Shown in pieces: positions 11,727 to 61,830 of a DNA stretch of 64,000 bases (its first letter is position 1; each line of letters starts with the position of its first letter). Both the position numbers and the translations under genes were made by a program. The DNA is taken from the NCBI GenBank assembly GCA_000092065.1, contig CP000598.1. One strand, written 5' to 3'. The notes below the pieces were generated by a model that made no database searches, had not been told where the DNA came from, and saw nothing but the letters and a program-made list of their open reading frames with translations. The DNA comes from Ostreococcus lucimarinus (Eukaryota).

Positions 11727-11746
11727 GCACTGGTTGACTTGATTGA

Positions 11747-14272: not shown

Positions 14273-14404
14273 CGTCGCGCGTTGAAATGCGGCGACGACA
14301 AGTGGCGACGGTGACGCGATCTGCCCGCACGCAATTCAATTCCTTCGGGTCACCTTATCTTTTGGAGCCCCCGGAAACGCGACTGTTTACCAATACGATG
14401 GTTC

Positions 14405-23668: not shown

Positions 23669-23688
23669 GCACTGGTTGACTTGATTGA

Positions 23689-34730: not shown

Positions 34731-34928
34731 GCGATCGCGGACTCGCGATGCGTACGTCGACGCGTTCGGCGCCGCGACGTCGTCGACTCGTCGGCGGACG
34801 CGCGCGCGTGTCCTTCGTCGCGCGCTGTGCAGGGCCGGAGTTTTTCACGCCCTCGGCTGCGTCAAACAAAAACCCGTCCTCCGAAACACACCGGCGTCCT
34901 CACACCGCCGCGCTCGCGGCGTCGCCTC

Positions 34929-37266
34929 GATGCGTCTGCGCGTCGCGTCGCTCTTCTCCGGCATCGGCGGTCTCGATCTCGGGCTCGAGCGCGCCGGACA
35001 CGACGTGGTGTTGCGCGTCGAGCGCGACGCGCACTGTCGCGAGTTGCTTCGACGGCAATACCCCGACGGCGCGCTCATGGACGACGTCGCCGCCGTCATG
35101 CCGCGCGATCTCGACGGCGTCGATCTGCTCGCCGCCGGGTTCCCGTGCAACGATTGCTCGTTCGAAAACGCGGCGCGACCGGGTTTGGAACACGGCCGCG
35201 ACACGCGTCTCGTGCGACACGTCTTTCGCCTGCTTCGCGAGAGACGCGTGGAGTGGGTGCTCCTGGAGAACGTCGTCGGGCTTTTGCGTTGGCACAGGCG
35301 GCGTCGTCGGAACGAGCGCCAGGGAGAGAACACGTCGCGGTCGCGCGATGCGCGTGCGCGGCCGCCGGCGATCGATCACATCGTCACCGAATTCGAAAAA
35401 CTCGGCTACCGCTGGGCGTATCGCGTGGTCGATTTGCTCGCCTTTGGCGTGCCGCACAAGCGCCGACGCGTCTTCATCGTCGCGAGCGCGCACGGCGACC
35501 CGCGAGACGTGCTTCTGAGTCAAGACTCGCAGTGTCAAGGCCGGTGCGAGACTTTCGCGGCGCACGCGCGCGTCCACCGCCGTCGGTGTTACGACTGCTT
35601 CAACGCGCCGCCGCGCGACGCCGCGACGGTCGAAGCCGTGTCCATCGACGTCGGCGAGAACAGACGACCGCCTCTGCGCGACATTTGCCAGTGCTTGACG
35701 ACGTCGAACGGGCGGCGGACGTGCGTGGTGACGCGCGCGGCGAACGACGCGCGCGAGACGTCGACGACGCGCGCGCTCGCCGTCGAGGACGCCGAACGCC
35801 TGATGGGATTCGAGCCGGGGTACACCGCGTCGTGCTACCCGATCGCCGACGCCAACGGGCGCGCGCCGATGAGTTTCAACGTCGACGCGCAAACGCGCAA
35901 ACGGTTCGCGTTGTTGGGGCTCGCGTGCGCGGTGCCTCAGAGTGCGTGGCTCGGCGAGCGCCTGCGAAACCCGTACGCCGTCAAGTTTCCGTACGCCGCG
36001 CTGTGCGCGCCGTTCCGCCGCGCGTGTCCGGGCGGGGACGACGACGACCAGGAAGGCGCGTGGCCGCTCGCAGCGTACAACGTATTCGAGCTCGACGACG
36101 CGGACGAGCCGAGATGGAAAAGCCGCCGACGCGCGCCGAAGACGCTCTCGGAATCCCCCGTCGTGCGCGCGTTCGTGCCGCTGGGTGAGTTTTTGAAGTT
36201 TCAACGTCGCGCGCGGGACGTCGATCCCGAAACTTTGCGCACGTACGCGCGGCGACTCCGCGCGAGCGGCCACGACGACGTCGACGAGCTCGTGCGTCTC
36301 GCGTTGCTCGGCGACGAGCGACGCGATGGCAAGCGTCGGCGGATCGCGGCGCCGCACGTCGGTACTACCGTTCGTCGCGCCGAATCCGTCTGGTCGTCGA
36401 GCGACGACGAACGCGATGATTCCCGAGACGACGATGCGATGCCGACGTTCGGCGCGCGCGCGTGGGTGCGGTGGCGAGGCAAACGCGGCGACGTGGCGAC
36501 GCGTTGGCCGTGTCTCGTGCTCGACGCGGGCGAAGATGGGGTGCGAGGCGTGACGACGCATCGCCACGTGGTATTTTTCGACGCCGCGCGTTCGCACGCG
36601 CGCGTCAGATCGACGGATATCGTCGGCCGATTTGGTGGAGACGACGACGACGGCGACAATATATCAGAACGCGCGGACATCGTCGGCGCGATCGAGCGCG
36701 CGAGGGTGTGGAAACGCGACGATCGAAATCACGAGTACGACCCGATCGCGTGGTCGTTTCGCGAACCGACGGCGTGTCTCGAGTGCGCAACGTGTCGCGA
36801 AGACGCGCCGCCCGCGGTGTCGACGCCCGATCGCAGTCGCGGCGGCAACGACGGTGTGTTGTCGCGAAGTCTTCGATCGAGCTTTGCGTCGGATTCAAAA
36901 ACATCATCATCATCGAAGTGTCCGCAAGCGACGGAAATAATTCCTCGCGCGCGCCTCGGGCACGTCGGCGCGACGCTCGCGTTGCGCCGCGGCGACGCCG
37001 TCGGACGAAGACTGCGCGTGTTTTGGCCCATCGAAAACGCGTTTTTCGCGGGCACGATCGCGGCGTTCGACAAACAAACGTACACGTTTCGCGTCGATTA
37101 CGACGACGGCGACGTCGAGGTGGCGTTCAAGCCGTGGATGGAGTCGGTGTGGCCGCTGAGGGGTGAAGATGAGTTCGCGACGTGTGGGGTGAAAACCCCT
37201 CGTGCGATCACACCATTCAATCAAAACACGCCAGAAATCTGCGAAGCACCAAAGACTCACTTTTAA
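34929..37266 (+). CDS. DNA (cytosine-5) methyltransferase (about 779 aa) with C-terminal PWWP-like ('WVRWRGKRGDVATRWPCLV') and Tudor/Agenet-like ('FWPIENAFFAGTIAAFDKQTYTFRVDYDDGDVEV') modules.
   Basis: Motif I 'LFSGIGGLDLG', motif IV 'GFPCNDCSFENAARPG', 'ENVVGLL' (motif VI), later 'QLGNAV'-position block. Start set at the ATG (34929) immediately preceding motif I; the track ORF extends upstream through GC-rich in-frame sequence. The whole gene sits in a CpG-dense island. Confidence 0.7.
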
Positions 37267-38818: not shown

Positions 38819-39928
38819 TCAGGAATACGTGCTGCACAATTCTGTGACTTGTGCTTTTGCAGACGCGTCGTGAAGTGGATTCACCTTTAACCAATGCTTG
38901 CAGCGAGTACAGTAAATGTCGGTTTGGTTGTCGGTTGTTTTGGCGTTCCAATCTCGTTCCAATCTCGCGCCGATGTCCAGTTCTTCTGTATCTGAAATCG
39001 ATTCAACGAAATCTAAGAGTAAATAACATTTGTACCCTTGAAGTCGGATGATTTCCTCCATTAACTCAATCGCTCTGTGAAGACTAAAGCTCGTGCGCTC
39101 GCGATACCACACCGCGGTGTACTCAAAAAACACATTTTTCACCGTTTTCGTTCTGAAGATGCGCATGCCGGACGACAAGACGCTCAGTTCATTACCTTCC
39201 GTATCTATGGCCAATATTTCAACGTCGTCATCATTCAAAGGGATGTCATCGAGCGCGATTGACGACACGATTTTGTGTCCAGCGCCGACGCCTTCGGCGT
39301 GTGTGTGAAACGTGCCAGAGCAAGTGTTGATCGGGGTGTCGATCGCGATCGGCACATCGCTGACGTAGTTGTTATACAACGAAACCCGTCTGACGAACTG
39401 CCGTGGGTACAAGGAAAACGTTTCCTGAATGCCAGAAACACAGAGAGGCAGAGGTTCTACGGCGTACACTCGGTACCCGCTGAGCATGAAAATCACGCAG
39501 AAAAAGCATTCATGCGCTCCGATGTTTATTGTTGCACCTCTACCACGGGACACACTAGAAATCGCATTAGATTTGTATTCGACTGGCGTCGAAGCCAATA
39601 GATTGCGCAGAATTTGTTGAATTTTCAATTCGCCTCCGTTCACTGGTAACCACTCAAACGTGTCTTCCCTCTTCAGCACGATAGGGAGATTTACGTAACC
39701 GTACACTTCAGTTTTTACGTCCGCCTTGTCTTTGACGAGGGTATGCGTGTCTTCGACGCCGTTTAAGGTGATTTCGCTGATGTTGGTGTGGCGAGGCGTG
39801 AAAACGACCTCTTGTTCGGGGCTCGCTGACACGCTGTAGTTGACACCACGTCGGAGCAGCGTAGGAATAATAAAGAGCGAAAGGAGAAGCGTATGTTTCG
39901 CACGCACTGAAACTTGCAGACTCTGCAT
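38819..39928 (-). CDS. FkbM-family methyltransferase domain protein with N-terminal membrane anchor (369 aa).
   Basis: 'GATINIGAHECFF' and 'VEILAIDTEGNELSVLSSG' match the two FkbM signature blocks. Anchor HTLLLSLFIIPTLL. Confidence 0.6.
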   Translation of the reverse strand: MQSLQVSVRAKHTLLLSLFIIPTLLRRGVNYSVSASPEQEVVFTPRHTNISEITLNGVEDTHTLVKDKADVKTEVYGYVNLPIVLKREDTFEWLPVNGGELKIQQILRNLLASTPVEYKSNAISSVSRGRGATINIGAHECFFCVIFMLSGYRVYAVEPLPLCVSGIQETFSLYPRQFVRRVSLYNNYVSDVPIAIDTPINTCSGTFHTHAEGVGAGHKIVSSIALDDIPLNDDDVEILAIDTEGNELSVLSSGMRIFRTKTVKNVFFEYTAVWYRERTSFSLHRAIELMEEIIRLQGYKCYLLLDFVESISDTEELDIGARLERDWNAKTTDNQTDIYCTRCKHWLKVNPLHDASAKAQVTELCSTYS

Positions 39929-40225: not shown

Positions 40226-41548
40226 CTAACGCTCTCCTGGTAGTATCGTTGCGCGTTGATCTATCGCTTGCCCTGTTGGATCCCAGGAAGGGTATCTCGT
40301 CATATTCGATAAGCGCAACGCCAAGGGCGTGTAAAATTGCTCGGCGTTCTCACCGGCTTTGACGAGCTCGTCGACCCTTCTCATGCGCGCGCCATACGCG
40401 CGTACTGGATCGTTCAAACAAAACAATCGCAATTCTTGCATCGTTTGTTCACAAGTCTTATTTGTACCGCTCTTAATGTTTCCTATGAAGTCATCGAATC
40501 CACCGTATTCCGTCGCCGTCATCATTTTTAGGATATACTGAGGCGGGAAACAATAATTCGTCGCGTGGAATCCTCGACCGAGAACGTGTTCCATGCGCCC
40601 TCGAGGAAGGAGCATTTGGTCGAGGCGATTCGCTACGGTCACACCGGGATCACCGAGCGTCCACGGCATGTTACGCGCCGGAAAGTCGGATCGAAATGCG
40701 AAATTTAGGTTTCCGTACGGAAACCAAATGCCGAAATTACCCGGCAACGCCGTTTCGCAGCGCGCTGCTTTCCAAACGTCTTCCCTCGCCGGTATCTCGT
40801 CCACGTGACCAAAAATAACGAGCGTTTTCTCGTCGTAGCGTTTGGCGAGTTCCCGCGCTATGGCGCTCTCTTTCTCTGCTTCGAATTGGAAATTGACCCC
40901 GTTCGGCGCCGCGGCGCCGGCTTGCGCGTGTTTGAAAATTTCCACCTTGTCGCGAATCGATTCAAACCTCGCCGTCTGTAATAATGATTCAAGCGCGTCA
41001 AAAGTGGCTTCGCCTTTGTGCGTGACGTTCGACGTCACGGCGATAAACTTATCGACGACAGGGTGTAATTCGTACAGACGAATCTCCAACGTATCGACTT
41101 CGCCGCCGCCGAAGAGGAAAACATCCACAATATTCCTAGGTTCGTCTAAAGTTTTGCCAGCGTCGCACTCGAATTGAACGCTTGATGCGGGTTGTAATGC
41201 TATGGAGGAATCGTCATAATCTGTGGGACTCAGAGCCGACGGAAACTGCGCGCGCGTGAGCAGTTCGATCACCCGACGGTGATCGCTCGATATGCGAACC
41301 AACTCTTCACACAGATCACTCGATGGCGCTAACGGTTCATTGAACGCACGAGGCGTGTTCTCATCTGCCGTTTCGCTCACGCTCGCGTCGATCGATTCAC
41401 TCTGGTCACCTACTGTGCCGTTCACCGTGACTCCTGTGATGCGAACCAACTCTCGTGGAAAGTCGAAATCGACGTAGAGGTGCACGTACGCGTAAGTCAG
41501 CGTGACGACGACGAAAGCGACGATCTGAAACGCGCGCAGCTGTCTCAT
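40226..41548 (-). CDS. Glycosyltransferase family 17 (GnT-III-like) type II membrane protein (440 aa).
   Basis: 'IVDVFLFGGGEVDTLEIRLYELHPVVDKFIAVTSNVTHKGEA' matches the GT17 'F.F..E.D.LE.RL.EL...VD.FV..ES..T..G' block. N-terminal anchor FQIVAFVVVTLTYAYV. Confidence 0.55.
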   Translation of the reverse strand: MRQLRAFQIVAFVVVTLTYAYVHLYVDFDFPRELVRITGVTVNGTVGDQSESIDASVSETADENTPRAFNEPLAPSSDLCEELVRISSDHRRVIELLTRAQFPSALSPTDYDDSSIALQPASSVQFECDAGKTLDEPRNIVDVFLFGGGEVDTLEIRLYELHPVVDKFIAVTSNVTHKGEATFDALESLLQTARFESIRDKVEIFKHAQAGAAAPNGVNFQFEAEKESAIARELAKRYDEKTLVIFGHVDEIPAREDVWKAARCETALPGNFGIWFPYGNLNFAFRSDFPARNMPWTLGDPGVTVANRLDQMLLPRGRMEHVLGRGFHATNYCFPPQYILKMMTATEYGGFDDFIGNIKSGTNKTCEQTMQELRLFCLNDPVRAYGARMRRVDELVKAGENAEQFYTPLALRLSNMTRYPSWDPTGQAIDQRATILPGER

Positions 41549-41764: not shown

Positions 41765-42787
41765 ATGGCTGAACTATCCACGGGGAAAGTCGAAACCGGC
41801 TTGGTGAGCCCAACGATGGGCGTTCGAACCGCCTCGCTGGCGTCGCGAAAGCATCAAGCGCTGGCGCTTTTCATCTTGACGATCCAAAACACCGCCTTGG
41901 TGCTCGTGACGAAGTTTTCGTATAGAAAATCTGCGACGCCTTACGTCGTGTCCACAGTCATCGCGAGCGCCGAGCTCGTCAAACTCGCTTTGAGCTATAT
42001 TTTGTTGGTCGCGTCCGACGGACAAAGCGCCGCCCGGGACGCGCTCCGCGAGGTGCCGTCCAACGCGACGCGGCTCGCGGTCCCATCCGTGCTGTACGTA
42101 ATACAAAACAACCTCCTTTTCGAGGGCGTGCGGTTGCTGAGCCCGACCGCATACATGGTGTGTTCGCAGAGCAAAATTCTCACGAGCACGATTTGTAGCG
42201 TCTTGCTCCTAGGAACGCGAATCACGCGTAAACAATATGTAGCGTTGTTGGTCCTCGCGTGTGGGATGATCATGGTACAGAACGAAGAAGGACGTGGACG
42301 CGATTTGCCGTCGGATAGAGCGCAGGTGAGACAAACTGTGCGAGGTATGGTCGTCGTGCTCACCGCCGCGTTTACGTCTGGCTTCGCGGGGGCGTATTTA
42401 GAGAAAATGTACAAAGAAGTGGGCGCTCAAAAGCGATCGGTATGGTTCCGCAACGCACAACTGGCGTGCTTTTCACTTCCAGTGGCGTTGATCGGATCAG
42501 TGTGGCGCGATGGAGAGCGCTTGCGCGCGAACGAAAGCGTGTTTCAAGGATACGACGGCGTCGTGTTGCTCGTCATCGCGCTACAAGCCGCCGGTGGTTT
42601 AGTCGTCGCGGCGGTGTTGCGATACGCGGGAAACGTGCTCAAGTGCTTCGCCGTGTCTATTTCTATATGTAATTGCGCCCTCGCGACGACGGTGTTTGCC
42701 AACGACGGACACAACCTGAGCGTTACGGCATCTCTCGGCATAGCGCTCGTCATCGGGTCGACGTTTCTTTATTCAAACGTAGTGTAG
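41765..42787 (+). CDS. Nucleotide-sugar transporter (SLC35A / UDP-Gal-CMP-Sia transporter family), 340 aa.
   Basis: 'LYVIQNNLLFEGVRLLSPTAYMVCSQSKILTSTICSVLLLG' matches the NST signature. About 10 hydrophobic helices. Confidence 0.7.
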   Translation: MAELSTGKVETGLVSPTMGVRTASLASRKHQALALFILTIQNTALVLVTKFSYRKSATPYVVSTVIASAELVKLALSYILLVASDGQSAARDALREVPSNATRLAVPSVLYVIQNNLLFEGVRLLSPTAYMVCSQSKILTSTICSVLLLGTRITRKQYVALLVLACGMIMVQNEEGRGRDLPSDRAQVRQTVRGMVVVLTAAFTSGFAGAYLEKMYKEVGAQKRSVWFRNAQLACFSLPVALIGSVWRDGERLRANESVFQGYDGVVLLVIALQAAGGLVVAAVLRYAGNVLKCFAVSISICNCALATTVFANDGHNLSVTASLGIALVIGSTFLYSNVV

Positions 42788-48372: not shown

Positions 48373-49344
48373 CTACAACCCCTGGCAGAGCACTTGAGCA
48401 ACATGCCGCATGTGGCGAAATCGCATGTTCAAGAATAAATCGTCGGCGCAATCATGATTCAAACCTCTTGGGAGGTATTCAAAGCCCAACGAGGTGATAA
48501 AGTCGCGAAGTTCATGCTCGCCATGCTGATCAGCGTAGCCGGTAACCACTAGCTCCGGTTGAATCCAGACAACTCGTTTCGATAGCCAATGCCGAGCCCC
48601 TTTGATAATCTCTAAGTCATGGCCCTGTGCGTCAATCTTCAACATGTCGATATATTGGACGCGGCCACCTTGAACACCTAGAGACTCTGACTTTGGAACT
48701 GACACGGACCAAGGCAGAAGGGTAAAGAAATCATGAAGATTCCAAACAGGGACCTGAATTTCATTCTGCACGTCAAACTTGACCGGTTTGTGTAAGCTTG
48801 ATGTCCCTGGATCACCAGCGGTCGCGTAAAATGTCTGCAAGTGTAGAGGAGAAGAGCCCATCGCCACACAAGATAAAAAGTAGCGTTTGCCAACTAAGTC
48901 CAACGGCACACAGAGGTCTCCTGTGGAGCAAGCACAACCCTTCAGTATGTTCTTGCAACTTGTCGGATTAGGCTCAAACGCAAAAACTGTCAGCTGATCC
49001 GGATCGGAAGTGCTGCTGAACCATAAGGCGGAGTTTGGAGCGTTGTAAGACTCACCAATAGATATTTTCACACGCCGCGTATGCCTCGGCAGTGCAATTT
49101 TTCCACGCCGCAGGTGCACTGGAAGTAAGGCACGCGTGGCGTGACGAGTGCGCGAGATATCTTTGATACGTTCGGCCCCTACGAGTGGATCACTTTTTGG
49201 TTCTTCACAGCTACTCCCAAGTGAGTCGCTGTACGATTCAGTCACAGGAAGTCCGCGTGCTGACGCAAACGCAAGGAGTACGAGCGAACCCAGCGAACCG
49301 AGCAAACAGCCCGCAACCAACCTAAATTTCATACTGAATTTCAT
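48373..49344 (-). CDS. FkbM-family methyltransferase domain protein with N-terminal signal/anchor (about 324 aa).
   Basis: 'MLKIDAQGHDLEIIKGARHWL' matches the FkbM C-terminal block. Start placed at ATG 49344 preceding MKFSMKFRLVAGCLLGSLGSLVLLAFASA; an upstream in-frame ATG at about 49398 is an alternative. Confidence 0.55.
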   Translation of the reverse strand: MKFSMKFRLVAGCLLGSLGSLVLLAFASARGLPVTESYSDSLGSSCEEPKSDPLVGAERIKDISRTRHATRALLPVHLRRGKIALPRHTRRVKISIGESYNAPNSALWFSSTSDPDQLTVFAFEPNPTSCKNILKGCACSTGDLCVPLDLVGKRYFLSCVAMGSSPLHLQTFYATAGDPGTSSLHKPVKFDVQNEIQVPVWNLHDFFTLLPWSVSVPKSESLGVQGGRVQYIDMLKIDAQGHDLEIIKGARHWLSKRVVWIQPELVVTGYADQHGEHELRDFITSLGFEYLPRGLNHDCADDLFLNMRFRHMRHVAQVLCQGL

Positions 49345-50080
49345 TCTGACAGGGACTCGCACGTTCTCGTGTCGCTTAAAGCCCGTATTTTGCTCCATCT
49401 CTTCGCGGTCTAAATACTGTATAAAGTGGGTGTGTAGTACGCTCTTTTCCGTTCTTCGGCCTGGGTGTTCAGTATGCTGTTTCCGGTCTTCAGTTTCTTC
49501 ATCTCGACGGCTTCGGGGCGACCACTTTGGCCGGCGACGAGTTTGCCCTGTACCATAGGACATCGTGGCCGCACACAGCATTTCGAGGCCTATATATTAT
49601 AATATCTCTTGTTTTTGTCAGAGGCCTATTTCTCAGAAACATCGTGTCCTTATGCGAAAATGAGGTGGATTAAGAGATGCGAAATTCGAAAATAGAATCG
49701 GCGATTTATTCCGATAAGGGCCGTTTTTTCCCACATCGGAATGAATCGGGCCTTTGTATTCCGAAAAGATACTTGTCAAAATAGCGCGACTCGTCACGTG
49801 ACGAGTTAATTTTAGGGGGTCCTATTCCGACAACGCTATTCCGGCTATCTCTTTTGAAAAACTAGCGACGCGAAATGAAGACGCGCAGTCGCCCCACTAG
49901 TGCGCGTCACTTGTTGAACTCGTTCTTCACCGAACGGGGTTTTAAAGACGTACATGTGTCCTCAGGGAACCGCATGCGGATTGTCGTCGATCTCCTTTGA
50001 CCTCGGACGCTGAGGCCTCGGACCTTAAAGTCCCCGCTTCCGACGTAAAAAGTTCTGTCAGTGCGAGTTTTAGCCACGCT

Positions 50081-52366
50081 ATGAACTGGAGACTGAGTAT
50101 GTCGGAGTCGAAGTCGTTGTTGATTCTTCTCGTTGCATATGCATTTTGCAGCTCGACTCTCTTGATTCTCAATAAAGTTGCGTTGCAGACCATAAACTCG
50201 GGTACATTTTTGCTCCTACTACAGTGCGTGTTCACTTGTATGGCTCTTGGGACTCTCGACCATTTTGGATTTACTTCGGCTATTTCGCCTCTGGAGGCAG
50301 CCGAGCGCGAGCGATTTACTGTGGTGGTTGCCCTGTTCGTGACAACTCTATTTGCCAACATGAAATGTCTACAACTCGCAAACGTCGATACCGTTATCTG
50401 TATCCGCATGACGTGTCCTTTGTTAGTGAGTTTGCTCGATTATCTCTTTCTTGGAAGGGAGCTGCCCACTCGCACTTCAACCCTAGCATTGGTTGCAACT
50501 TGTGTGAGCTTTGCCTCATTTTTACTCGTTGAACAGAACTCTTCATGGATCACAATATTTTGGCTATCATTTTGGTACTGTGCTATGGTATTTGAGACCG
50601 TATTCGTCAAGTTTGTTGTCAGTGACTCGTCGCTTTCAACAGCGGCACAGTCCTTCTATCAAAATTTACTTGCGATCCCGGTGTTGACAGTGATATGGTT
50701 TTCCACAGAGATCCCAACTAGTGTTTTTGAACAAATTTCTTTGTCTACTTCGGAATTCTCCTTGGTTCTGTCCACTTGTATTCTCGGGTTAGGGATGAGC
50801 TACTTGTCGTTTGCTGTGCGTGAACGGGTATCGGCGACGAGCTTTTCAATGCTTGGTAATACGTGCAAGTTGATAACAATTCTAACGAATTATTTACTAT
50901 GGGAAAAACATGCTACAGGTGTTGGAACTTTTGCAGTCCTTTTCTGTCTTGCATCCAGTACCTTTTATCGCCAGGCGCCGTTGCGACATCCTATTAATCA
51001 TAAGGCGCAGTCATGGTTTCCCGCCCCTTGTACCATCAAGGCTACTGAAGAAGTCAATATGAGGATCATTGCAGCTGGGTTACTCGGTATCCTGGCGCTT
51101 GGCTTGCACTTTACTTCATATTTTCGTAGTTCTGTGAACTGGAACCTTGAAGAACAAACAGGTGTTTCTGGCGTTTCAGGAAAATTATTTACTGGTGCAC
51201 AAGTGCGGCAGTATTTTCCTTCGCATGACGATCGTCCTTCCAAGAAAAATCGTTCGACCTCTTCTCCCTTCTTTTCTGATCATATGTCTTGCGAAAATTG
51301 GGCCGTTTGTACCACCATCTTCGTCGAGTCAGACGCAGTGCGTGACGTTTGTAAAATACTACCGTCGTACTGCCTACTTGTCGTCGCAGATAAGAAAGGT
51401 CCACTAGAATACTTCATCGACGGGAACTGCACGTTCGCATACTTATCTGTAGAGCAACAAGAAGACATGTTAACAGACTCAGACTTCATCACAGAAACGC
51501 CGTGGAATCACTTTGGGCGGAAAAATCTAGGGTACTTGTTTGCAATAGCGAATGGTGCGAAGATGATATGGGATTTTGATGATGACAATCAAATAATCAG
51601 TTCAAAATTTTTTCTCGATCAGGCAGGAGAGCACCAACTAGTTACAGTCGAACCAATTACTTCGATGCTGAATCCTTACCCCTTACTTGGTGCCGAAAAG
51701 TTTTCCTGGCCTCGTGGTTTTCCACTCGACGGTATAAAAAACGAGGCATCACAACCAAGCGTTGACGATCTACGAGTTTCTGTCGTCGACTTCGAACGTG
51801 TCGGAGTACTGCAATCACTGGCGAATAATGATCCAGATGTTGATGCTATTTACAGGCTTCAGAGAGACCTGCCTTTCAGCTTCAAAGGCTGGTCGAGTCC
51901 TGCAAGTGTTTTCGTTTTGCCAGGCGCTTCTTTTGCTCCCTGGAATGCTCAAGCCACCCTTTTCAGGATGCGGGATGCACTCTGGGTTTCGTATTTACCT
52001 ATCTCTATTCATGGTAGGGTATCTGATATATGGAGATCATACATAGCGCAGCGACTTTTGCGGAACGTGTGTATTCACATCGCCTTCGCTGTGGAGCCAC
52101 TTGTTGTGCAACATCGAAATCAGCATTCCTACCTTGCCGATTTCGATGCGGAGCAAGATTTGTATTACAAATCAGGTAAACTGATCGAGCTTCTTGGAGA
52201 GTGGACCGCAAAATCTTCCTTTCCTCAAGAGCAGATTGTGGAGCTCTTCAGGATTCTGTATGAACATGATTATGTTGGAATCAAAGATGTTCGAATGATC
52301 GAACTCTGGATTTCAGAGCTCAACCGAGCGGGATACATCTTTCCAAAGAGCTGCAGTGTCCGCTAG
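50081..52366 (+). CDS. Single ORF fusing an N-terminal TPT/EamA-type (nucleotide-sugar/triose-phosphate transporter-like) 10-TM domain to a C-terminal STELLO-like (DUF288) putative glycosyltransferase domain (about 761 aa).
   Basis: N-terminal 320 aa is hydrophobic helices with the 'LQLANVDTVICIRMTCPLLVSLLDY' TPT pattern. An internal hydrophobic segment MRIIAAGLLGILALGLHF follows. The C-terminal 'CLLVVADKKGPLEYF...NHFGRKNLGYLFAIANGAKMIWDFDDDN' matches the DUF288/STELLO core (KN.GYL.AI.HGAK.I.D.DDD). No stop codon between the two parts. Confidence 0.55.
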   Translation: MNWRLSMSESKSLLILLVAYAFCSSTLLILNKVALQTINSGTFLLLLQCVFTCMALGTLDHFGFTSAISPLEAAERERFTVVVALFVTTLFANMKCLQLANVDTVICIRMTCPLLVSLLDYLFLGRELPTRTSTLALVATCVSFASFLLVEQNSSWITIFWLSFWYCAMVFETVFVKFVVSDSSLSTAAQSFYQNLLAIPVLTVIWFSTEIPTSVFEQISLSTSEFSLVLSTCILGLGMSYLSFAVRERVSATSFSMLGNTCKLITILTNYLLWEKHATGVGTFAVLFCLASSTFYRQAPLRHPINHKAQSWFPAPCTIKATEEVNMRIIAAGLLGILALGLHFTSYFRSSVNWNLEEQTGVSGVSGKLFTGAQVRQYFPSHDDRPSKKNRSTSSPFFSDHMSCENWAVCTTIFVESDAVRDVCKILPSYCLLVVADKKGPLEYFIDGNCTFAYLSVEQQEDMLTDSDFITETPWNHFGRKNLGYLFAIANGAKMIWDFDDDNQIISSKFFLDQAGEHQLVTVEPITSMLNPYPLLGAEKFSWPRGFPLDGIKNEASQPSVDDLRVSVVDFERVGVLQSLANNDPDVDAIYRLQRDLPFSFKGWSSPASVFVLPGASFAPWNAQATLFRMRDALWVSYLPISIHGRVSDIWRSYIAQRLLRNVCIHIAFAVEPLVVQHRNQHSYLADFDAEQDLYYKSGKLIELLGEWTAKSSFPQEQIVELFRILYEHDYVGIKDVRMIELWISELNRAGYIFPKSCSVR

Positions 52367-52743
52367 CAAGGTTTAGGATCGGTAAAAATAAAATTACACG
52401 CGTGTCGGTATTCGTTTCGTCGCTTCCGTCGGTTGCGCGCCACCGCTGGGCATTTGAAGTTAGCACTTCTCGATCGCCACGCGCGCGTTGTGGCGTCGTC
52501 GCGACTTATTAGCACTTCCGACGGCGCGCACGTATTAGGGACGTGGAGTGGAATACATACGTAGTTTTCTAATAACGAAAGAAGGAATTCGACTCACAAA
52601 TAAAACAAGTCATGAACACAAACACTTGGACGCGATGCGATGAACCGCAACGACCGTGGACGCCGTGTGGCTCACGCGTCGTATATAGCACTTCGCTTCT
52701 CTCAACGACGACAATGAGAACCGCGGGAGCATCTACTTGTTTT

Positions 52744-53988
52744 TCACTCTGGAAACAAGGTACGCGTTTTTCTTCTCCAGTGCTTCAAGATATCGGCAAT
52801 TGTGTTTGTGATGTTTGGGTCAGGAATCCACCCCGTCAGCTCTCGTATTTTCCTATTATCTGACAAAAGTATCTTCTCATCGTAAAGCCGCTCACGTGCA
52901 CCATCAAACAGCGTCGTGATGTCTGGTCTTGTTGACAGTGAAATCGCTGTGTCTAGGATGTCCTTCATTGAAAGTGCGATGCCACTACCGATGTTGTACG
53001 ACTCTCCAGGCTCTCCAAGGTCTACAAGTTTCGTTACCACTCGTGCAGAATCGCGGAGGTCAGTTATGTCCCTTTTTGTGGTAATGCGCCCATGTCTCAC
53101 CACTGGGCTTTGCAATCCGAGCTCGATCATTGCTATCTGCCGACAAAACTCTTGAGGTGCGAGACTCTCAGTCCCACCCGCTGAAACTTGGATAAAAAAT
53201 CGAGCGGTGACGACGTGCATGCCGTGGCTGTGCACATATTGCTGAGCAAGTAGGTCTGCTGCAACCTTGCTTACTCCATAAGGAGACACGGGCGCCAATG
53301 GTGCTTCTTCAGGTATGGCCCCTTCCCACGTATCAGCAGTTTTTCCATATTCTGTGCTTGAACCAGCCAGCAGAAAGCGCGTTTTGTTGGAGAGTCCTGC
53401 AAATCGCACTGCTTCTAGCATGTTGAAGGTGCCTTTGATGTTGGTATCTAAAGTCAGCTCAGCGGAGTCATATGAAACCCCGTTGATTGCTTGTGCAGCA
53501 AAATGGAAAATAACTGTTGGGCAGATTTCTGCGACCACCTGTTTGACACGAGTTCCGTCCAGAATGTCTCCACGAACGAGCTGTATGTTGTTCAATTCGC
53601 CTGCCAAATTTGACAGGTCAGATCGGTATCGCACAAGACCGTGAACCTCATACTTTCCTTCCTGTATCAACTGTTTCACAACGTAGCTGCCTATCATTCC
53701 AGACACACCTGTCACGAGAGCTCTTGGTCTTGCAGATAGAGCACTCAAGCAAGGCGTGTAATCTTTACTCTTTGCATTAAGATTTGTAGCAAAAGAGGAT
53801 TCCTCACGGTACATATGAGTTTTTGAAGGTTGAACATTGTATCGTGAAGTAACCGGGCTTGAAAGTCCTGATTTGAATTGCACAGCCTGATATGACGGAT
53901 GTAACACAACAGCTGCTAAAACAAACGATGAAACAGCCAATATTCGTGCAGTCTTTCCCAGCGTGTGCTTGAAGCGACTGTCGCGCAT
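52744..53988 (-). CDS. GDP-mannose 4,6-dehydratase-like short-chain dehydrogenase (GMD/Rmd family) with an N-terminal membrane anchor (414 aa).
   Basis: 'ALVTGVSGMIGSYVVKQLIQEGKYEVHGLVRYRS' (Rossmann plus GMD-type N-terminus), 'AGSSTEYGK' (catalytic S/T..Y...K region). Anchor ILAVSSFVLAAVVL about 60 aa before the Rossmann fold. Confidence 0.6.
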   Translation of the reverse strand: MRDSRFKHTLGKTARILAVSSFVLAAVVLHPSYQAVQFKSGLSSPVTSRYNVQPSKTHMYREESSFATNLNAKSKDYTPCLSALSARPRALVTGVSGMIGSYVVKQLIQEGKYEVHGLVRYRSDLSNLAGELNNIQLVRGDILDGTRVKQVVAEICPTVIFHFAAQAINGVSYDSAELTLDTNIKGTFNMLEAVRFAGLSNKTRFLLAGSSTEYGKTADTWEGAIPEEAPLAPVSPYGVSKVAADLLAQQYVHSHGMHVVTARFFIQVSAGGTESLAPQEFCRQIAMIELGLQSPVVRHGRITTKRDITDLRDSARVVTKLVDLGEPGESYNIGSGIALSMKDILDTAISLSTRPDITTLFDGARERLYDEKILLSDNRKIRELTGWIPDPNITNTIADILKHWRRKTRTLFPE

Positions 53989-56407: not shown

Positions 56408-57961
56408 ATGCTACTGAAAGTAGCTTGCGATTCCGGTACTATGGCTCGCCGAACGGTCATTCTGTTTGCGGTTGTGGCCGTGTTGCTTTGGAGACTGTTC
56501 TTGTTCGATATTGGTGACAGCAGATTTAAAAGTATCACACCACATCCATCACCGGAGCAAAGACGACAACAAAATCACCGAGCAAGATTTTTAGAGCTCA
56601 CACATAACGAAACCTACAAAACCGCAAATGTCGAAGAGAGGAACGATGAACATTTCAAGATGGAACGATATGAAGAATCACCTGCAAGATTACAAGCGTC
56701 AGCTAATTTGGATACACAGAGCACCCGCGTCTTGGTTTTAAGTTGGCATGGTGGTACCGCGAAAGACACAGCGATGCAACTTCATAACGCTGGAGTTCGT
56801 CGCGAAAATATCGTGTGTGGAGGCATTATTTGGTACGAGAAAGTCCTCGATTCTGCTCCTTGCGTAAGAGATCATGCATTATCTGAGGCTTTGAATCGAT
56901 TGACACAGCGTGTAAGAGGTTTTCCCATGGCTATCGATCCAGCAGACGAGAAATGGTTGGATGATTTCGCAGCTGAGGCTAGCGAGATGCTATCTACGTT
57001 CCATGTGCTCTGGGCGGACTTTCCTACCGCCCTTTGTCTTCTATTAAACAAGATTGCCCCACATAAATTGATAGTACGCACAACGCATCGTTTTGATCAC
57101 CAGGTGGCTCATTCGAAGATAAATCACACGTCATTTGTACGTAAAAGCCTCATGCGCGTTCTACGCGAGGCGCCAATACTTCTTGCTGGGAGCGAGTACG
57201 ATCGGGCATACATGAAGTTCTACACATGTCGTGAACCTGAACGTCTATTCATAACATGGCCAACACAGTATTTGGAGAGTTTGGGCGCATCGCGTACACT
57301 TACGAACGAGTCATGCTTCATCTTGTGGGGGGGGTCGAACAACGAAGGTAGTTCAAGCATATCGATTACATTTGATAGAATACGAGTCCTCGGGCGCACT
57401 ATGGAGTCACAAGTTCCCATGAAAAGTCGCCCAACGAGTTTTGCTCACGCTTCGGAATTTGCAACAGAGCAAGCCGTAGTATATTTCCCATACAGTATGC
57501 CGAGTTCCGCATTTCATGAACTTTACGCGAGTGGTGTCCCCCTTTTCGTGCCATCGTTGACTTTCATGCTCGATGAGTTTTCAAAAAACCGTGGCTATCC
57601 TCACAAAGTAGCTGGTAATGTCCCTTGTGCTTCACCATCTTTTTACGAAAACGCTGAGGCAGTGGAGTTCTGCTGTCTTGACGATACTGGGGTATGTCAT
57701 GATCCAAATTCATGCGATCCTGAAGCGCTGAAACAATGGGTATCATTAGGTGACCTTTACACCACCCCGCATGTGACGTATTTCGACAGTGCCGAGCATG
57801 CTGTGGAACTCATGAGCAACTGGATGAAGCATCCAGACCAACGGGATCGAACGATCGAGGACATGGAGTCACACAACGTTGCTAACCTTCGATGGAATGC
57901 TCGTGTCGTTCAAGCCGCAATTCGTCATGTCAAACAAAGCAGCGCGCTTGAACTGGATTGA
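56408..57961 (+). CDS. Type II membrane protein, possible glycosyltransferase (about 517 aa).
   Basis: Anchor RRTVILFAVVAVLLWRLFLF. Long ORF. Its last 46 codons are duplicated at 61462-61599. Confidence 0.4.
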   Translation: MLLKVACDSGTMARRTVILFAVVAVLLWRLFLFDIGDSRFKSITPHPSPEQRRQQNHRARFLELTHNETYKTANVEERNDEHFKMERYEESPARLQASANLDTQSTRVLVLSWHGGTAKDTAMQLHNAGVRRENIVCGGIIWYEKVLDSAPCVRDHALSEALNRLTQRVRGFPMAIDPADEKWLDDFAAEASEMLSTFHVLWADFPTALCLLLNKIAPHKLIVRTTHRFDHQVAHSKINHTSFVRKSLMRVLREAPILLAGSEYDRAYMKFYTCREPERLFITWPTQYLESLGASRTLTNESCFILWGGSNNEGSSSISITFDRIRVLGRTMESQVPMKSRPTSFAHASEFATEQAVVYFPYSMPSSAFHELYASGVPLFVPSLTFMLDEFSKNRGYPHKVAGNVPCASPSFYENAEAVEFCCLDDTGVCHDPNSCDPEALKQWVSLGDLYTTPHVTYFDSAEHAVELMSNWMKHPDQRDRTIEDMESHNVANLRWNARVVQAAIRHVKQSSALELD

Positions 57962-58094
57962 AAATGCTGGTCGATACAAAGAAGCTGTGGGGGCGATACT
58001 TTGGACATCGTATTCAATATCTTACTTGGCGTACCTCGCCATGTAGAGTCTCACGCCTAGCGTATGTACGCGAAGTGAAAATAGATTTGAGTTT

Positions 58095-58817
58095 TCATTT
58101 AGTGTAACTCGATAGCGGGTTTTCCATGGTGGTGTTCGGGATGGGCGCTACTCCCCCTGCCGTAGTATCGCATATTTCGTAATCGAACAACTGCCCGTAC
58201 GTTCCTCGCACTAAGTGAACAATCGCCACCCGGTCGAAAACTGTCACTTTCTTCCCCCGTCGCACGAGTCGTTTCGCGATTTCGAGCAGCTGGGACTCTT
58301 CGATGATATCCACAGGACAATTCGATTCATATGCGACGTAGGATACCTTACACCTATCGAGATCTAGCCAGGTAACACCGTGCCTCAAATCATCAAGTGT
58401 TTGTTCTCGGGGTTCAAGTCGCTAATATCACTCAAAAAACCGACTGAGCGCGCTTGTGTCGTACGCTTGATCTCCAGAGTCAGTGGGCGTGGCGACGAGG
58501 ATGAAGACCATATCGACGCGATCGATCACTTCACGCAGCTTTAAAGTTGCGCGCAGATGTTTGCTCGATCGAAGCGCTTCCTCGACTCTTGGCTCAGTCA
58601 AACGAAGCGTGATTTCGTTGATGCTGTCCACGTGCGCCGGAAAGACATCCGAACCAACGATATCCCAATCAGCTTGTTCACACTTGAGAGCCGTACATAG
58701 TCCGAGTCGGCCCAGACCGACGAATCTGGCGCGCGTTGTTTGCAAGATCGATCGAGTGGTAGCCATCTTCGCTCTGCGACGTTGCAACGTCAGAGACGGC
58801 GACTGGCCCAAGATCAC
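58095..58817 (-). pseudogene. Internally deleted paralog of the nucleotide-sugar dehydrogenase. N-terminal about 110 aa (58428..58817) and C-terminal about 80 aa (58095..58388) are recognisable; the central catalytic region is missing.
   Basis: 'MATTRSILQTTRARFVGLGRLGLCTALKCEQADWDIVGSDVFPAHVDSIN' and '...CPVDIIEESQLLEIAKRLVRRGKKVTVFDR...ENPLSSYTK*' align to the ends of 54470..55663. Confidence 0.6.
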
Positions 58818-59560: not shown

Positions 59561-60750
59561 TTACAAAGCCAGTGTCGTGCAATCATCAAGCTCGTTTGTG
59601 AAATCAAACTCGAGCGATCGTCGTCGACCGTCCGCGCTCGCCGAAGGGTGCGGGCGCAACGCAGGTGAGAATTCGCCCCAGTAGGCGCTCAAGTCGTTAT
59701 TCGAGTACCAACGCACGGTTTCCGCGAGACCGACGTCCCAGGACTTTTCTTGTCGCCATCCGAGCGCTAAAAGCTTTGAGCAATCGATGAAATATCTTCG
59801 GTCGTTGAAGGCTCGATCGCTCACGTGCTCGATGGTCGTTTCCGGGTCGCGATCGAGGAGCTTACAGACATCCCGAGCGACGGACAAGATCGTCCGCTCT
59901 TCGCGCGAGCCGATGTTATAAATCTGCGCCGTCGTCCCGCGGTGGAGAATGACATCGAACGCCGAAGACGCATCGTCAACGTGCATGTACGAACGCGTCG
60001 CGTCGCCGTCGCCGTGTATCGAAATCTTTTCCCCGCGTTTCGCGAGGATTGAAAACTTTGGAATCGCCTTCTCTGGATACTGATTCGGCCCATACACGTT
60101 GTTTCCGCGAGTGATGATGTACGGTAGTCCGTACGAGCGTCCATACGCCATGACGAGCATCTCCGCGCCCGCCTTGGTCGCGGCGTACGGGTTGGTGGGC
60201 GTCAGGAGCGACGCGTGCTCGGTGTTTGAATCCATGAGATTTTCCCCGTATACCTCATCCGTGGACACGTGCAGGAATCGTCGAATTTCGGTCTTCTGCG
60301 CTCGCACGCACGCCTCGAGTAACGCGTGCGTGCCCTCGATGTTATTCTTCGTGAACTCGTACGAGTTCCCGAAAGAGTTGTCCACGTGACTCTGCGCGGC
60401 GAAGTGCATGACGGTGTCGATGCGCTCGCTTTGCAAGACGTAACTCAATAAATCGAACGAACGCACATCGCCCTTGACGAACCGCACGTTCGCGCATTCT
60501 TTCGCGCGCTCGAGATTTTTCAAGCTCGAGCAATAGTCGAGCTTGTCCAGGATGACAATCTGTCGAGCGCGACGAGTCGTTCGCGGTCAGTCGTTCGCGC
60601 GAGAGATGGGTGCAAAGTCCGTGCGTTGTTCGACGCACGCGCACGGGGTCGAAATCGTGCGCGCACCGTGTACTCGGGATGCCTCGACGCGAGGCGCTCG
60701 GCGACGTGCGAGCCGATGAAGCCGGCGCCACCGGTGAGAAGGATGCGCAT
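59561..60750 (-). CDS. dTDP-glucose 4,6-dehydratase (RmlB) / UDP-glucose 4,6-dehydratase family, two exons. Exon 1 is 60667..60750 (MRILLTGGAGFIGSHVAERLASRHPEYT), intron 60560..60666 (GTGCGC...ACAG, 107 nt), exon 2 is 59561..60559 (IVILDKLDYCSSLKNL...).
   Basis: Exon 1 contains the GGAGFIGS Rossmann motif. Exon 2 has 'HFAAQSHVDNSF' and 'YAATKAGAEMLVMAY' (catalytic YxxxK). Joining the exons restores the expected 'Y.V..LDKLDY' continuity in frame. Confidence 0.7.
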
Positions 60751-61239: not shown

Positions 61240-61830
61240 GTCTACTGCATACACTTTAAGTGCGCCGATAAAGAGCTTTGACTTCGTGACAACGGCTGTC
61301 ATCTACGAACCTGTTTCACGCATCAAAGTCCACCATGCTTTGAATCCTGTGGCTTGTGGCACGTGATGAGCAAGTGCCACCCGAACCTGCGTTCTATGGT
61401 GCGCACGAGAGCGTCCGCACGAGAGCATCCGGCATGGCCGCGAACCACGGCTCTTTTCTGGATGAAGCATCCAGACCAACGGGATCGAACGATCGAGGAC
61501 ATGGAGTCACACAACGTCGCTAACCTTCGATGGAATGTTCGTGTCGTTCAAGCCGCAATTCGTCACGTCAAACAAAGCAGCGCGCTTGAACTGGATTGAA
61601 AATGCTGGTCGATACAAAGAAGCTGTGGGGACGATACTTTGGACATCGTATTCAATATCTTACTTAGCGTACCTCGCCGTGTAGAGTCTCACGCCTAGCG
61701 TACGTACGCGAAGTGAAAATAGATTTGAGTTTTCATTTAGTGTAACTCGATAGCGGGTTTCCCATGGTGGTGTTCGGGATGGGCGCTACTCCCCCTGCCG
61801 TAGCATCGCATATTTCGTAATCGAAAAGTT
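61240..61830 (+). repeat. Composite duplicate: 61240-61460 copies 55860-56070, and 61462-61830 copies 57822-58190. Carries a truncated 3' fragment (61462..61599) of the 56408..57961 gene, a pseudogene remnant.
   Basis: Direct alignment. ORF 61354..61599 ends with the same 'WMKHPDQRDRTIEDMESHNVANLRWN.RVVQAAIRHVKQSSALELD*' as 56408..57961. Confidence 0.75.

Follow-up and report, generated by a model that had tools for sequence, protein, structure and literature searches.

A single gene of the minute marine green alga Ostreococcus lucimarinus encodes one continuous polypeptide in which a Vrg4-like nucleotide-sugar transporter is joined, through a linker and an additional hydrophobic helix, to a STELLO-like, GT75-related GT-A domain, and sequence comparisons support this fusion as real and conserved. 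We consider it likely that the product is a bifunctional endomembrane protein, combining a Vrg4-type importer with a lumenal glycosyltransferase (GT) that uses a sugar of the GDP-6-deoxyhexose type. The gene lies in a 64,000-nucleotide stretch of contig CP000598.1 (hereafter the window), and its features, together with those of its neighbour, are listed in Table 1.

Table 1 Features of the transporter-GT fusion gene and of the convergent reductase gene.
Feature	Position	Strand	Details and evidence
Complete fusion-protein CDS	50081..52366	+	761 aa plus TAG; alternative start ATG 50099 gives 755 aa
Nucleotide-sugar transporter domain, aa 1-299	50081..50977	+	Ten TM helices; Vrg4-like, DMT/SLC35 superfamily; hydropathy, AlphaFold2, Pfam, profile, Foldseek, dN/dS
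FYQN, aa 192-195	50654..50665	+	Aligned with Vrg4 FYNN on TM7; profile alignment
GNTCK, aa 259-263	50855..50869	+	Aligned with Vrg4 GALNK on TM9; profile alignment
Linker, aa 300-326	50978..51058	+	Basic, poorly conserved, predicted cytosolic; alignment A1, charge count
Eleventh TM helix, aa 327-350 (MRIIAAGLLGILALGLHFTSYF...)	51059..51130	+	Hydropathy peak 1.76; AlphaFold2 helix 323-351
Stem region, aa 351-400	51131..51280	+	Disordered; conserved motif SGVSGxLFxGxxxR; AlphaFold2, alignment A1
GT-A fold, STELLO-like/GT75-related domain, aa 401-761	51281..52363	+	phmmer, Foldseek, AlphaFold2, dN/dS
DDD, aa 500-502	51578..51586	+	DxD metal and nucleotide-sugar motif, equivalent to MtdL D109-D111; phmmer alignment, invariant in A1
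Arg545 in WPRGFP	51713..51715	+	Equivalent to MtdL Arg159; phmmer alignment, invariant in A1
Pfam STELLO PF03385 match, aa 646-756	52016..52348	+	Profile positions 1-111 of 387; Pfam scan
Convergent SDR neighbour	52744..53988	-	N-terminal membrane anchor; GDP-6-deoxy-D-lyxo-4-hexulose reductase (Rmd)-like; Pfam, PDB

The initial annotation had proposed that a transporter and a glycosyltransferase domain share one ORF, with an internal hydrophobic segment between them. The ORF scan, Pfam and AlphaFold2 bore this out: the frame runs uninterrupted from the ATG to the TAG at 52364-52366, with no stop between the halves, and the hydrophobic segment was recovered by both hydropathy and structure prediction. 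The frame is already open upstream of the ATG, from 49997, and the second ATG (MSESKS) is the start picked by gene callers on environmental contigs (P0001). Shuffling the nucleotides of the whole ORF 2000 times never gave a stop-free frame, the 101-codon stretch from linker to stem was open in 0.64% of shuffles, and GC3 is uniform along the ORF. An NCBIfam scan of the protein returned no match.

Eight environmental contigs (L001-L008) encode the 755-residue product with 100% identity, and inspection found no poly(A) tails and no adapters on them; these contigs were retrieved with the full-length protein and thus form a biased sample, of either DNA or RNA origin. Seven of the eight consist of the gene and 4-400 nt of flank only, a transcript-like look that is not proof. 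The contigs of two fused homologs (L059 and L060) are also without poly(A).

The reference gene model at this locus is truncated: the transporter alone is annotated, and the STELLO/GT75-like part is left out. XP_001422304.1 (O. lucimarinus CCE9901), named "GDP-mannose transporter, partial", comprises 293 residues that are 100% identical to residues 7-299 of the fusion protein, and no NCBI protein in the 90% cluster of P0001 covers the GT half. That the model is labelled partial and ends at the very point beyond which known transporters are no longer similar suggests that it was limited by homology.

When orthologs were examined for the same fusion, the fused ORF recurred, at 32-59% identity, in no fewer than nine divergent clusters of proteins, none of which has a stop between the halves. 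A full-length transporter followed by a helix and the GT domain is present in P0003, P0004, P0005, P0006 and P0007/P0009 (47-59% identity), and in the more distant P0061-64 (36-39%) and P0017, P0018, P0073 and P0116 (32-34%). An exhaustive HMMER search returned P0003, P0010, P0016, P0061-64, P0073 and P0116 as fused representatives, in agreement with a domain census, and the contig DNA of P0003, P0004 and P0018 contains one continuous frame. Both domains are under strong purifying selection (dN/dS 0.10-0.18). A fusion in the reversed order was also detected (P0107), in which the GT domain precedes the transporter with exactly one helix between them. Stand-alone GT relatives (P0012, P0014 and P0015) are type II proteins with an N-terminal anchor; in a rough NJ tree, stand-alone GT forms are nested among the fused ones, which argues that fusion is not obligatory for function. 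A viral origin of the gene was considered and rejected, as the homologs in giant-virus MAGs (24-36% identity) consist of the GT alone, and the transporter is present in none of these MAGs.

The ORF might nevertheless give rise to two separate products: the transporter would be ended or processed around residue 300, and an internal promoter, or a start at Met327, would yield a type II GT. The fusion would then be incidental in O. lucimarinus. Met327 is encoded by an internal ATG (nt 51059-51061) directly before the hydrophobic helix, an arrangement typical of a textbook signal anchor; the reference annotation holds the 293-residue transporter alone; and stand-alone type II homologs exist on transcript-like contigs, several of which begin with attached Illumina adapter at a 5' end lying 50-90 nt before the ATG. 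However, Met327 is absent from all relatives in alignment A1 except one that is 80% identical, the halves are joined without a stop in every divergent fused cluster, and a 101-codon linker would be open by chance with a probability of 0.006 in each lineage. The incompleteness of the reference model and the uniform GC3 also speak against two products, which we regard as improbable, although a minor internal transcript in O. lucimarinus is conceivable. The two-gene alternative raised in the initial annotation thus found no support, and its reading as one polypeptide is favoured by the conserved fusion, the open linker, the non-conserved Met327, the purifying selection on both domains and the single helix between the domains of the reversed fusion.

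Within this single polypeptide, residues 1-299 have the Vrg4 GDP-mannose transporters as their closest solved relatives. Hydropathy analysis gave ten TM helices, and the AlphaFold2 helices span residues 7-293. A profile of the transporter half and its relatives matched the PDB entries 9S35 (E 6.6e-15) and 5OGE (E 3.4e-12) over their full length, Foldseek gave TM-scores of 0.76-0.78 to Vrg4 and of 0.76-0.79 to Vrg4 and the triose-phosphate translocator, and dN/dS in this domain is 0.11-0.18. The earlier label of a TPT/EamA-type transporter held for EamA, which matched residues 14-141 above its cut-off (35.6 versus 28.2 bits) only with the N-terminal half scanned alone, but not for TPT, since PF03151 had no match in the transporter half, whereas transporter-only relatives do carry it. 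The GDP-sugar recognition motifs of Vrg4 are partly kept, with FYQN in place of FYNN, whose role in Vrg4 was reportedly set out together with its structure, and GNTCK in place of GALNK; Y193, Q194 and N195 of the former and G259, N260 and C262 of the latter are invariant in the transporter alignment A3. Residues 1-299 are predicted to work as a Vrg4-type (GDP-sugar) antiporter that exchanges nucleotide sugar for NMP.

The segments that connect the two domains evolve under relaxed constraint, with dN/dS in the linker, eleventh helix and stem still below 1. The linker (dN/dS 0.45; pLDDT 55-65) has low sequence conservation and varying length in the relatives, yet its frame is open throughout, and a hydrophobic segment occurs at the matching place in all fused homologs (alignment A1). 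The stem has a pLDDT below 50 at residues 351-366 and a dN/dS of 0.27-0.88, and its conserved motif is kept in both fused and stand-alone homologs. Loops assigned as cytosolic contain ten K/R residues versus two in loops assigned as lumenal. From the count of 10 + 1 helices and this charge bias, the GT domain is predicted to be lumenal, behind the eleventh helix, which may act as a topological adaptor or signal anchor; the type II stand-alone relatives and the one-helix reversed fusion are consistent with this topology. Met327 stands exactly at the start of the eleventh helix here and in the 80%-identical relative, and an internal start there could physically yield a type II product, which counts against the mechanism proposed below.

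If the hydrophobic segment did not span the membrane, a cytosolic GT75-like domain could hand a modified nucleotide sugar to the transporter that it is attached to, as plant UDP-arabinose mutase does upstream of UDP-arabinofuranose transporters. The domain is GT75-related, and the plant RGP/UAM enzymes are cytosolic. Against such an arrangement, however, a 29-residue helix is confidently predicted after the basic linker, relatives of the stand-alone and GT-SDR kinds have signal anchors at their N termini, a single helix also separates the domains of the reversed fusion, and Arabidopsis STELLO is experimentally lumenal (PMC4906169). We therefore view a cytosolic placement as highly improbable and retain the lumenal one.

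For the C-terminal domain, "glycosyltransferase" is a family label, and its closest solved relative is the GT75 NDP-pyranose mutase MtdL (7XPU), detected by phmmer (E 1.6e-10) and by Foldseek (E 6.4e-14, over ~390 columns). Foldseek also matched rice UAM2 (8CID; E 5e-8) and showed that both the core and the C-terminal helical region of the GT75 fold are present in the domain, which is predicted with pLDDT mostly above 90 and has a dN/dS of 0.10-0.18. The previous STELLO/DUF288 assignment stands in part: PF03385 scores 72.2 bits against a gathering cut-off of 27.8, but full-length DUF288 is absent, since the match stops at profile position 111/387 (~29%), where the protein ends. This partial coverage is alike in all eight homologs tested. 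The catalytic residues kept relative to MtdL are D500-D502, R545, D586, Q624, R646, D649, R679 and H682; of these, D649 aligns with the catalytic Asp D260 and is invariant in A1, as is the DPDVD at 584-588. The roles of D109-D111 in MtdL are described in PMC9937993, as is Arg159, the self-glycosylated, nucleophilic arginine of GT75 enzymes. By sequence alignment alone, two MtdL residues are replaced, the Mn ligand H287 by Q677 and D87 by F478.

This raises the alternative that the C-terminal domain of the same fused protein works in the lumen as a GT75-type NDP-pyranose mutase or as a self-glycosylating enzyme, which would convert imported GDP-pyranose into the furanose form for other transferases, with no acceptor transfer of its own. 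Such an activity would fit the closeness to MtdL in both sequence and fold and the invariance of the nucleophilic R545, the proposed base D649, and D586, Q624 and R646; in addition, MtdL and Hyg20 act on GDP-6-deoxyhexose/GDP-hexose, which suits a Vrg4-like transporter and an Rmd-like neighbour. However, the Pfam RGP model had no match to the domain even at E 10, while STELLO is above threshold, and the two replacements fall on H287 and D87, which MtdL requires. Furthermore, in Arabidopsis STELLO the equivalent Arg is dispensable and the DxD motifs are required (PMC4906169), and the GT75 mutases described in the literature consulted are soluble bacterial or plant enzymes. The same literature yielded no demonstrated enzymatic activity for any STELLO-family protein. 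On balance, we consider a mutase unlikely and infer transferase rather than mutase activity for the GT domain.

Ostreococcus is not known to have a cellulose wall, and the link of STELLO to cellulose synthase would therefore not apply here. One half of the protein could still be non-catalytic, if the transporter served as no more than a polytopic anchor or if the STELLO-like domain had a scaffolding or regulatory role like that proposed for STELLO in cellulose-synthase assembly. The degenerate Vrg4 substrate motifs and the undefined biochemical activity of STELLO (PMC4906169) are compatible with this, but strong purifying selection acts on both halves, polar residues in the transporter helices are invariant (A3), and the GT half keeps the DxD motif along with the full set of nucleotide-sugar-binding residues. 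The recurrent fusion in both orders, and to a nucleotide-sugar reductase, further argues for metabolic coupling, and a non-catalytic half appears improbable.

That reductase link is also visible at the locus itself, where the convergent SDR neighbour matches PDB 2PK3 (E 3e-54) and shares 49% identity with a GDP-4-keto-6-deoxymannose-reductase-like SDR domain fused with a STELLO-like GT in P0040. Further GT-SDR fusions occur in P0144, P0098, P0096, P0123, P0148 and P0094, and N-terminal signal anchors are found on these relatives. Because of the adjoining Rmd-like gene and the GT/reductase fusions in other organisms, a GDP-6-deoxyhexose is suggested as the substrate, and the neighbour may be a pathway partner of the fusion protein. 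Among the fused loci examined, synteny with the reductase was seen in this genome only. P0040 was also considered as a reductase-transporter fusion, which was rejected since BLASTP shows a reductase-GT fusion instead. Likewise, a second SDR in the window (59561-60523), tried as a GDP-mannose dehydratase (GMD), is dTDP-glucose-4,6-dehydratase-like, so no GMD partner was identified within the window.

In the mechanism we propose for the bifunctional protein, which would probably reside in the Golgi, a ten-helix Vrg4-type antiporter would have both ends in the cytosol, and the eleventh helix would take the chain back across the membrane, so that the stem and GT-A domain would come to lie in the lumen, like a type II Golgi enzyme. 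The transporter could then supply activated sugar beside the catalytic domain, which would use a DxD-bound metal, most likely for sugar transfer to a lumenal glycan or protein acceptor; the candidate substrate is GDP-D-rhamnose or another GDP-6-deoxyhexose, or the precursor of such a sugar. Import and catalysis may be coupled in the fusion protein, which could conceivably also contribute to surface-glycan variation associated with virus resistance. A more far-reaching scheme, which we regard as speculative and distinctly unlikely, would place the protein at the centre of an autonomous lumenal route to an unusual sugar. This route would combine a GDP-sugar importer covalently coupled to the GT75-like enzyme with an Rmd-like reductase that is membrane-anchored and lumenal. 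The GT75-like domain would act either as an NDP-pyranose mutase, the first in the lumen, or as a D-rhamnosyl-/furanosyl-transferase, and the rare 6-deoxyhexose/furanose surface glycans that it makes would set prasinovirus susceptibility. If this were true, the order-independent fusions (transporter-GT, GT-transporter, GT-SDR and SDR-GT) would be natural evidence for direct Golgi substrate channelling to client enzymes.

The locus lies on the small outlier chromosome of O. lucimarinus (chr 18), as XP_001422304.1 is on a 149,386-bp record whose size and GC agree with those published for this chromosome (149 kb, 53% GC; PMC3491373). The window is rich in FkbM, GT, SDR and NST genes. In Mamiellales, the small outlier chromosomes are enriched in genes for sugar transporters, glycosyltransferases and epimerases, and these genes have been connected with resistance to prasinoviruses (PMC5082852). 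The fusion gene adds a concrete candidate to the glycan-remodelling genes of this resistance-linked chromosome, and its full-length ORF corrects the shortened model in the algal reference genome. For the poorly understood STELLO/GT75-related family, the Rmd-like reductase fusions provide GDP-6-deoxyhexoses as a candidate substrate class. Direct cargo hand-over from Golgi nucleotide-sugar transporters to given glycosyltransferases is debated, with evidence from indirect interaction assays in mammalian cells, and a natural conserved fusion that has a dedicated adaptor helix, unfused close relatives and at least one reversed version makes it simple to compare the fused state with the split one.

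Compared with known systems, a transporter-GT fusion is known in kind from O. tauri, where a GT92 containing a transporter domain has been reported (PMC5082852), and the STELLO/GT75-like version is a new variant; our literature search on natural transporter-GT fusions found nothing specific beyond that remark. Both cases place a TPT/NST-type transporter and a glycosyltransferase in one gene of a small outlier chromosome, surrounded by sugar-modifying genes and FkbM methyltransferases, but they differ in GT family (GT92 versus STELLO/GT75-like), and the comparison is made at the level of the published description. In the mammalian Golgi, SLC35A2/A3 form non-covalent complexes with MGATs, B4GALTs and UGT8 (PMC9368800, PMC6453868), so that there, too, a nucleotide-sugar transporter is physically associated with an enzyme that uses its cargo, whereas the association in the fusion protein is covalent and genetically encoded.

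At the level of the individual domains, the Vrg4-type transporters (5OGE, 9S35) share the ten-helix DMT fold with end-to-end alignment, as well as FYxN and GxxxK at the FYNN and GALNK positions; identity to them is, however, ~19%, the motifs are changed, and the fusion protein has a 460-residue C-terminal extension. Similarly, GT75 mutases (MtdL 7XPR-7XPU, rice UAM2 8CID; PMC9937993) share the fold over the whole domain (TM-score 0.75), and the DDD, Arg159, Asp195, Gln229, Arg257, Asp260, Arg289 and His292 of MtdL are all kept. Identity to MtdL is, however, 22%, with the RGP match missing and His287 and Asp87 changed to Gln and Phe, and MtdL is a soluble tetramer, whereas the GT domain here is predicted to be membrane-tethered and lumenal, with a putative activity. 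Arabidopsis STELLO1/2 (PF03385/DUF288; Zhang et al. 2016, PMC4906169) share the GT75-related GT-A region, in which DxD and DPDVD occur ahead of the first part of DUF288, and their catalytic domain is lumenal to a TM helix, as predicted for the fusion protein. In contrast to these, the fusion protein is without Pfam profile positions 112-387, and in place of a single N-terminal anchor it has a ten-helix transporter and one further helix.

The single open reading frame reported in the initial annotation was confirmed, running on the plus strand without an internal stop, and its frame is open already from 49997, upstream of the first ATG. Gene callers on environmental contigs take the second ATG (50099, MSESKS...) as the start, and the resulting 755-aa product is the representative of its 90%-identity protein cluster. 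All of 2000 nucleotide-shuffled versions of the ORF contained a stop, and the 101 codons between the transporter and glycosyltransferase (GT) domains stayed open in only 0.64% of shuffles; composition is similar along the ORF (GC 0.44–0.46, GC3 0.39–0.48), and no paralog was detectable elsewhere within the window. The same cluster contains XP_001422304.1 (293 aa), identical to ORF residues 7–299, whose model is marked as partial and breaks off precisely at the point where likeness to known transporters stops; no NCBI protein within the cluster spans the C-terminal 460 residues. Eight environmental contigs show 99.7–100% identity across the gene. The fusion ORF corrects the reference annotation of O. 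lucimarinus.

Features of the fusion locus and the surrounding window
Feature	Position	Strand	Remarks
Fusion ORF	50081-52366	+	ATG 50081, TAG 52364-52366; 761 codons
SDR	52744-53988	-	own N-terminal hydrophobic anchor; immediately downstream of fusion gene
FkbM-type methyltransferase	38819-39928		near fusion gene
GT17-like protein	40226-41548		near fusion gene
CMP-sialate-type nucleotide-sugar transporter	41765-42787		near fusion gene
FkbM-type methyltransferase	48373-49581		internal hydrophobic segment after extended N-terminus
Dehydratase-like ORF	59561-60523	-	320 aa; strongly like dTDP-glucose 4,6-dehydratases (6VLO, E 4.6e-76)
DUF285 ORF	1545-9368	+	2607 aa; 13 DUF285 repeats (1193 bits)
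Methylase ORF	34624-37266	+	880 aa; C-5 cytosine DNA methylase, mono-CXXC unit, Tudor-like domain
4.2-kb direct duplication	10191-14406 and 22125-26353		98.8% identity
Shorter repeats (example)	57820-58187 with 61458-61825		97.6%
Motif TTAGCACTTC	52460-52520		twice, 3' intergenic region

Judged from its sequence, the N-terminal half (residues 1–299) is a homolog of DMT-type nucleotide-sugar transporters, in line with the EamA-type assignment made initially, as Pfam EamA passes threshold when this half is scanned by itself. A profile combining this half with relatives that have only the transporter matches GDP-mannose transporters over the entire length (9S35, E 6.6e-15; 5OGE, E 3.4e-12), Foldseek returned TM-scores of 0.76–0.78 to Vrg4, and FYQN (192–195) and GNTCK (259–263) occupy the positions of the Vrg4 FYNN and GALNK motifs. 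Hydropathy and an AlphaFold2 model (mean pLDDT 86.5, pTM 0.70; 40-sequence alignment as input) agree on ten transmembrane helices. A basic, poorly conserved linker (residues 300–326) follows, then the hydrophobic segment already noticed between the domains, which is confidently predicted as an eleventh helix (323–351 in the model, hydrophobic core 329–348), and a disordered stem. Cytosol-assigned loops contain ten Lys/Arg residues versus two in lumen-assigned loops. Since ten helices would leave the two ends of the transporter on the cytosolic side, the eleventh would put the C-terminal domain in the lumen; the localisation of the protein is likewise presumed.

Alternatively, two genes with a hidden boundary could be present, the second starting at Met327, the internal ATG that opens the eleventh helix. 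A word-indexed search and an exhaustive HMMER scan over 1.84 billion representatives (4818 matches at E up to 0.001) both yielded proteins spanning the query from ~15 to ~757 in one stretch. These fused relatives comprise the cluster representatives P0003, P0004, P0005, P0006 and P0007/P0009 at 47–59% identity, P0061–P0064 at 36–39%, and P0017, P0018, P0073 and P0116 at 32–34%, together with truncated fused fragments (P0010, P0016, P0008); in a local domain census, 32 of the 203 retrieved proteins had the transporter–GT architecture. The contigs of P0003, P0004 and P0018 each carry the match in a single unbroken frame, and the linker differs among relatives in sequence and length, yet is never interrupted. 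Met327 is replaced in all relatives save the 80%-identical one. Against that relative, dN/dS is 0.18 for both the transporter and the GT domain (P0003 versus P0004: 0.11 and 0.10), with values of 0.27–0.88 for the linker, eleventh helix and stem. Taken together, the fused relatives, open linker, non-conserved Met327 and dN/dS values argue strongly that both halves are translated as a single polypeptide; O. lucimarinus may also make a further, internal transcript, though the data can be explained without one. On the contig (L056) of P0002, the 80%-identical relative, transporter residues 12–64 lie inverted (421–579, minus strand) ahead of the remainder of the gene (793–2427, plus strand), which starts at residue 217; the transporter half may truly be rearranged or truncated in this close relative, or the metagenome contig may be misassembled.

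The proposed DUF288/STELLO identity of the C-terminal half holds at Pfam's threshold, with a qualification: Pfam STELLO scores 72 bits against a threshold of 27.8, but the match is limited to residues 646–756, profile positions 1–111 of 387, so that about 70% of the model is missing; eight relatives show the same partial match. Upstream, residues 456–691 match MtdL, an NDP-pyranose mutase of family GT75 (phmmer, E 1.6e-10; 7XPU and related entries), and in Foldseek the match extended over the full length of MtdL (E 6e-14, TM-score 0.75) and also included rice UAM2 (8CID). Mapping the MtdL functional residues (PMC9937993) through the phmmer alignment showed conservation of D109–D111 (here D500–D502), R159 (R545), D195 (D586), Q229 (Q624), R257 (R646), D260 (D649), R289 (R679) and H292 (H682), each invariant across 13 relatives, whereas H287 (Q677), D87 (F478), S228 (A623) and R90 (K481) differ. 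Catalytic activity, as transferase or mutase, is presumed. The helix, GT75-related region and DUF288 start agree with the published STELLO layout of transmembrane helix, GT75-related region and DUF288, in which the STELLO domain is lumenal, the DxD motifs are needed and the RGP-type arginine is dispensable (PMC4906169). Since most of the STELLO model is absent, and since the GT75 fold and most of its catalytic residues are present without equivalents of His287 and Asp87 and without a Pfam RGP match, the most fitting description of this half is a short-form STELLO-like, GT75-related domain, not a true STELLO or RGP.

In the exhaustive search, 979 clusters matched at E < 1e-30. The GT domain mostly occurs in stand-alone relatives, among them P0012, P0014 and P0015, which carry an N-terminal signal anchor. 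P0012 contigs have Illumina adapter joined at several positions 50–90 nt upstream of the ATG, and these joints look like transcript 5' ends. A rough NJ tree places these stand-alone forms among the fused ones, which suggests that fusion and fission have recurred and that the GT domain can work unfused. In P0107 (727 aa, a JGI metagenome protein with incomplete N-terminus) the order is reversed: GT, one hydrophobic helix, transporter. P0039 (742 aa) and P0031 (710 aa) have the same transporter and hydrophobic segment followed by a different C-terminal domain (in P0039 ~400 residues with a weak Pfam XG_FTase/GT37 match), which suggests that transporter plus adaptor helix form a modular chassis. 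An Rmd-like SDR is joined to the GT domain in seven proteins, ahead of it in some and behind it in others (P0144, P0098, P0148, P0094, P0096, P0123, P0040), four with an N-terminal anchor (P0098, P0144, P0148, P0096). P0107, P0039/P0031 and the GT/SDR fusions all support functional coupling. P0017, P0018 and P0061–P0064 (1016–1181 aa) bear an extra C-terminal domain of ~300–400 residues without Pfam match, and in P0008 the STELLO-like domain is followed by GT2_4. Thirty-nine giant-virus contigs (IMG/VR) encode GT-only homologs (24–36% identity), none with a transporter; within 5 kb of the GT, an SDR occurs in 4/39 and a UDP-glucose/GDP-mannose dehydrogenase in 2/39. In one (L017), an FkbM-like match (5930–6625) begins directly where the GT match (5004–5930) ends, possibly another fusion.

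The top solved match of the neighbouring SDR is GDP-6-deoxy-D-lyxo-4-hexulose reductase (2PK3, E 3e-54), and the SDR of P0040 is 49% identical to the neighbouring SDR (E 2e-108). From this neighbour and the GT/SDR fusions we infer, with modest confidence, that transporter, GT domain and reductase share a GDP-sugar pool and compartment, the sugar plausibly being, at similarly modest confidence, GDP-D-rhamnose or a related 6-deoxyhexose. The window yielded no identifiable GDP-mannose 4,6-dehydratase, and the other fused loci that were examined showed no synteny with the reductase. The match of the dehydratase-like ORF begins at ~residue 50 of dTDP-glucose 4,6-dehydratases, so either an upstream exon encodes its N-terminus or the gene is truncated.

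In O. lucimarinus the small outlier chromosome is chromosome 18 (149 kb, 53% GC; PMC3491373). Such chromosomes are enriched in sugar- and glycan-type genes, and in O. tauri prasinovirus resistance was linked to them (PMC5082852). The window is in keeping with such a chromosome in GC (46–65%) and content, encoding FkbM methyltransferases, GT17, a CMP-sialate-type transporter, epimerase/dehydratases and a sugar-nucleotide dehydrogenase, as well as a giant protein of DUF285 repeats and a cytosine methylase; a link of the fusion gene to virus resistance is presumed, and a transporter–GT fusion in this setting is not wholly surprising. The DUF285 ORF, with near-identical internal DNA repeats (e.g. 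1902–2723 = 2835–3656), resembles the 'cell surface repeat lipoprotein' category of the O. tauri small outlier chromosome; the methylase ORF sits in a locally GC-rich stretch (0.65), and the 4.2-kb duplication contains an 841/843-aa ORF without Pfam match. Two environmental contigs (L003/L004, ~2383–2652) carry ~200 nt extra directly ahead of motif TTAGCACTTC, which points to strain-level indels directly 3' of the fusion gene.

A search of the open-access literature turned up no earlier account of a fusion between a transporter and a STELLO/GT75-like domain, nor of the adaptor-helix logic or the connection with Rmd-like reductases; this connection suggests what class of substrate the STELLO family may use. 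A GT92 that contains a transporter domain has, however, been noted in O. tauri (PMC5082852). The domain families (Vrg4-type transporters, STELLO, GT75) are themselves known, and non-covalent transporter–GT complexes have been described in mammals (PMC9368800); the covalent fusion provides a clean natural system for testing transporter–enzyme channelling.
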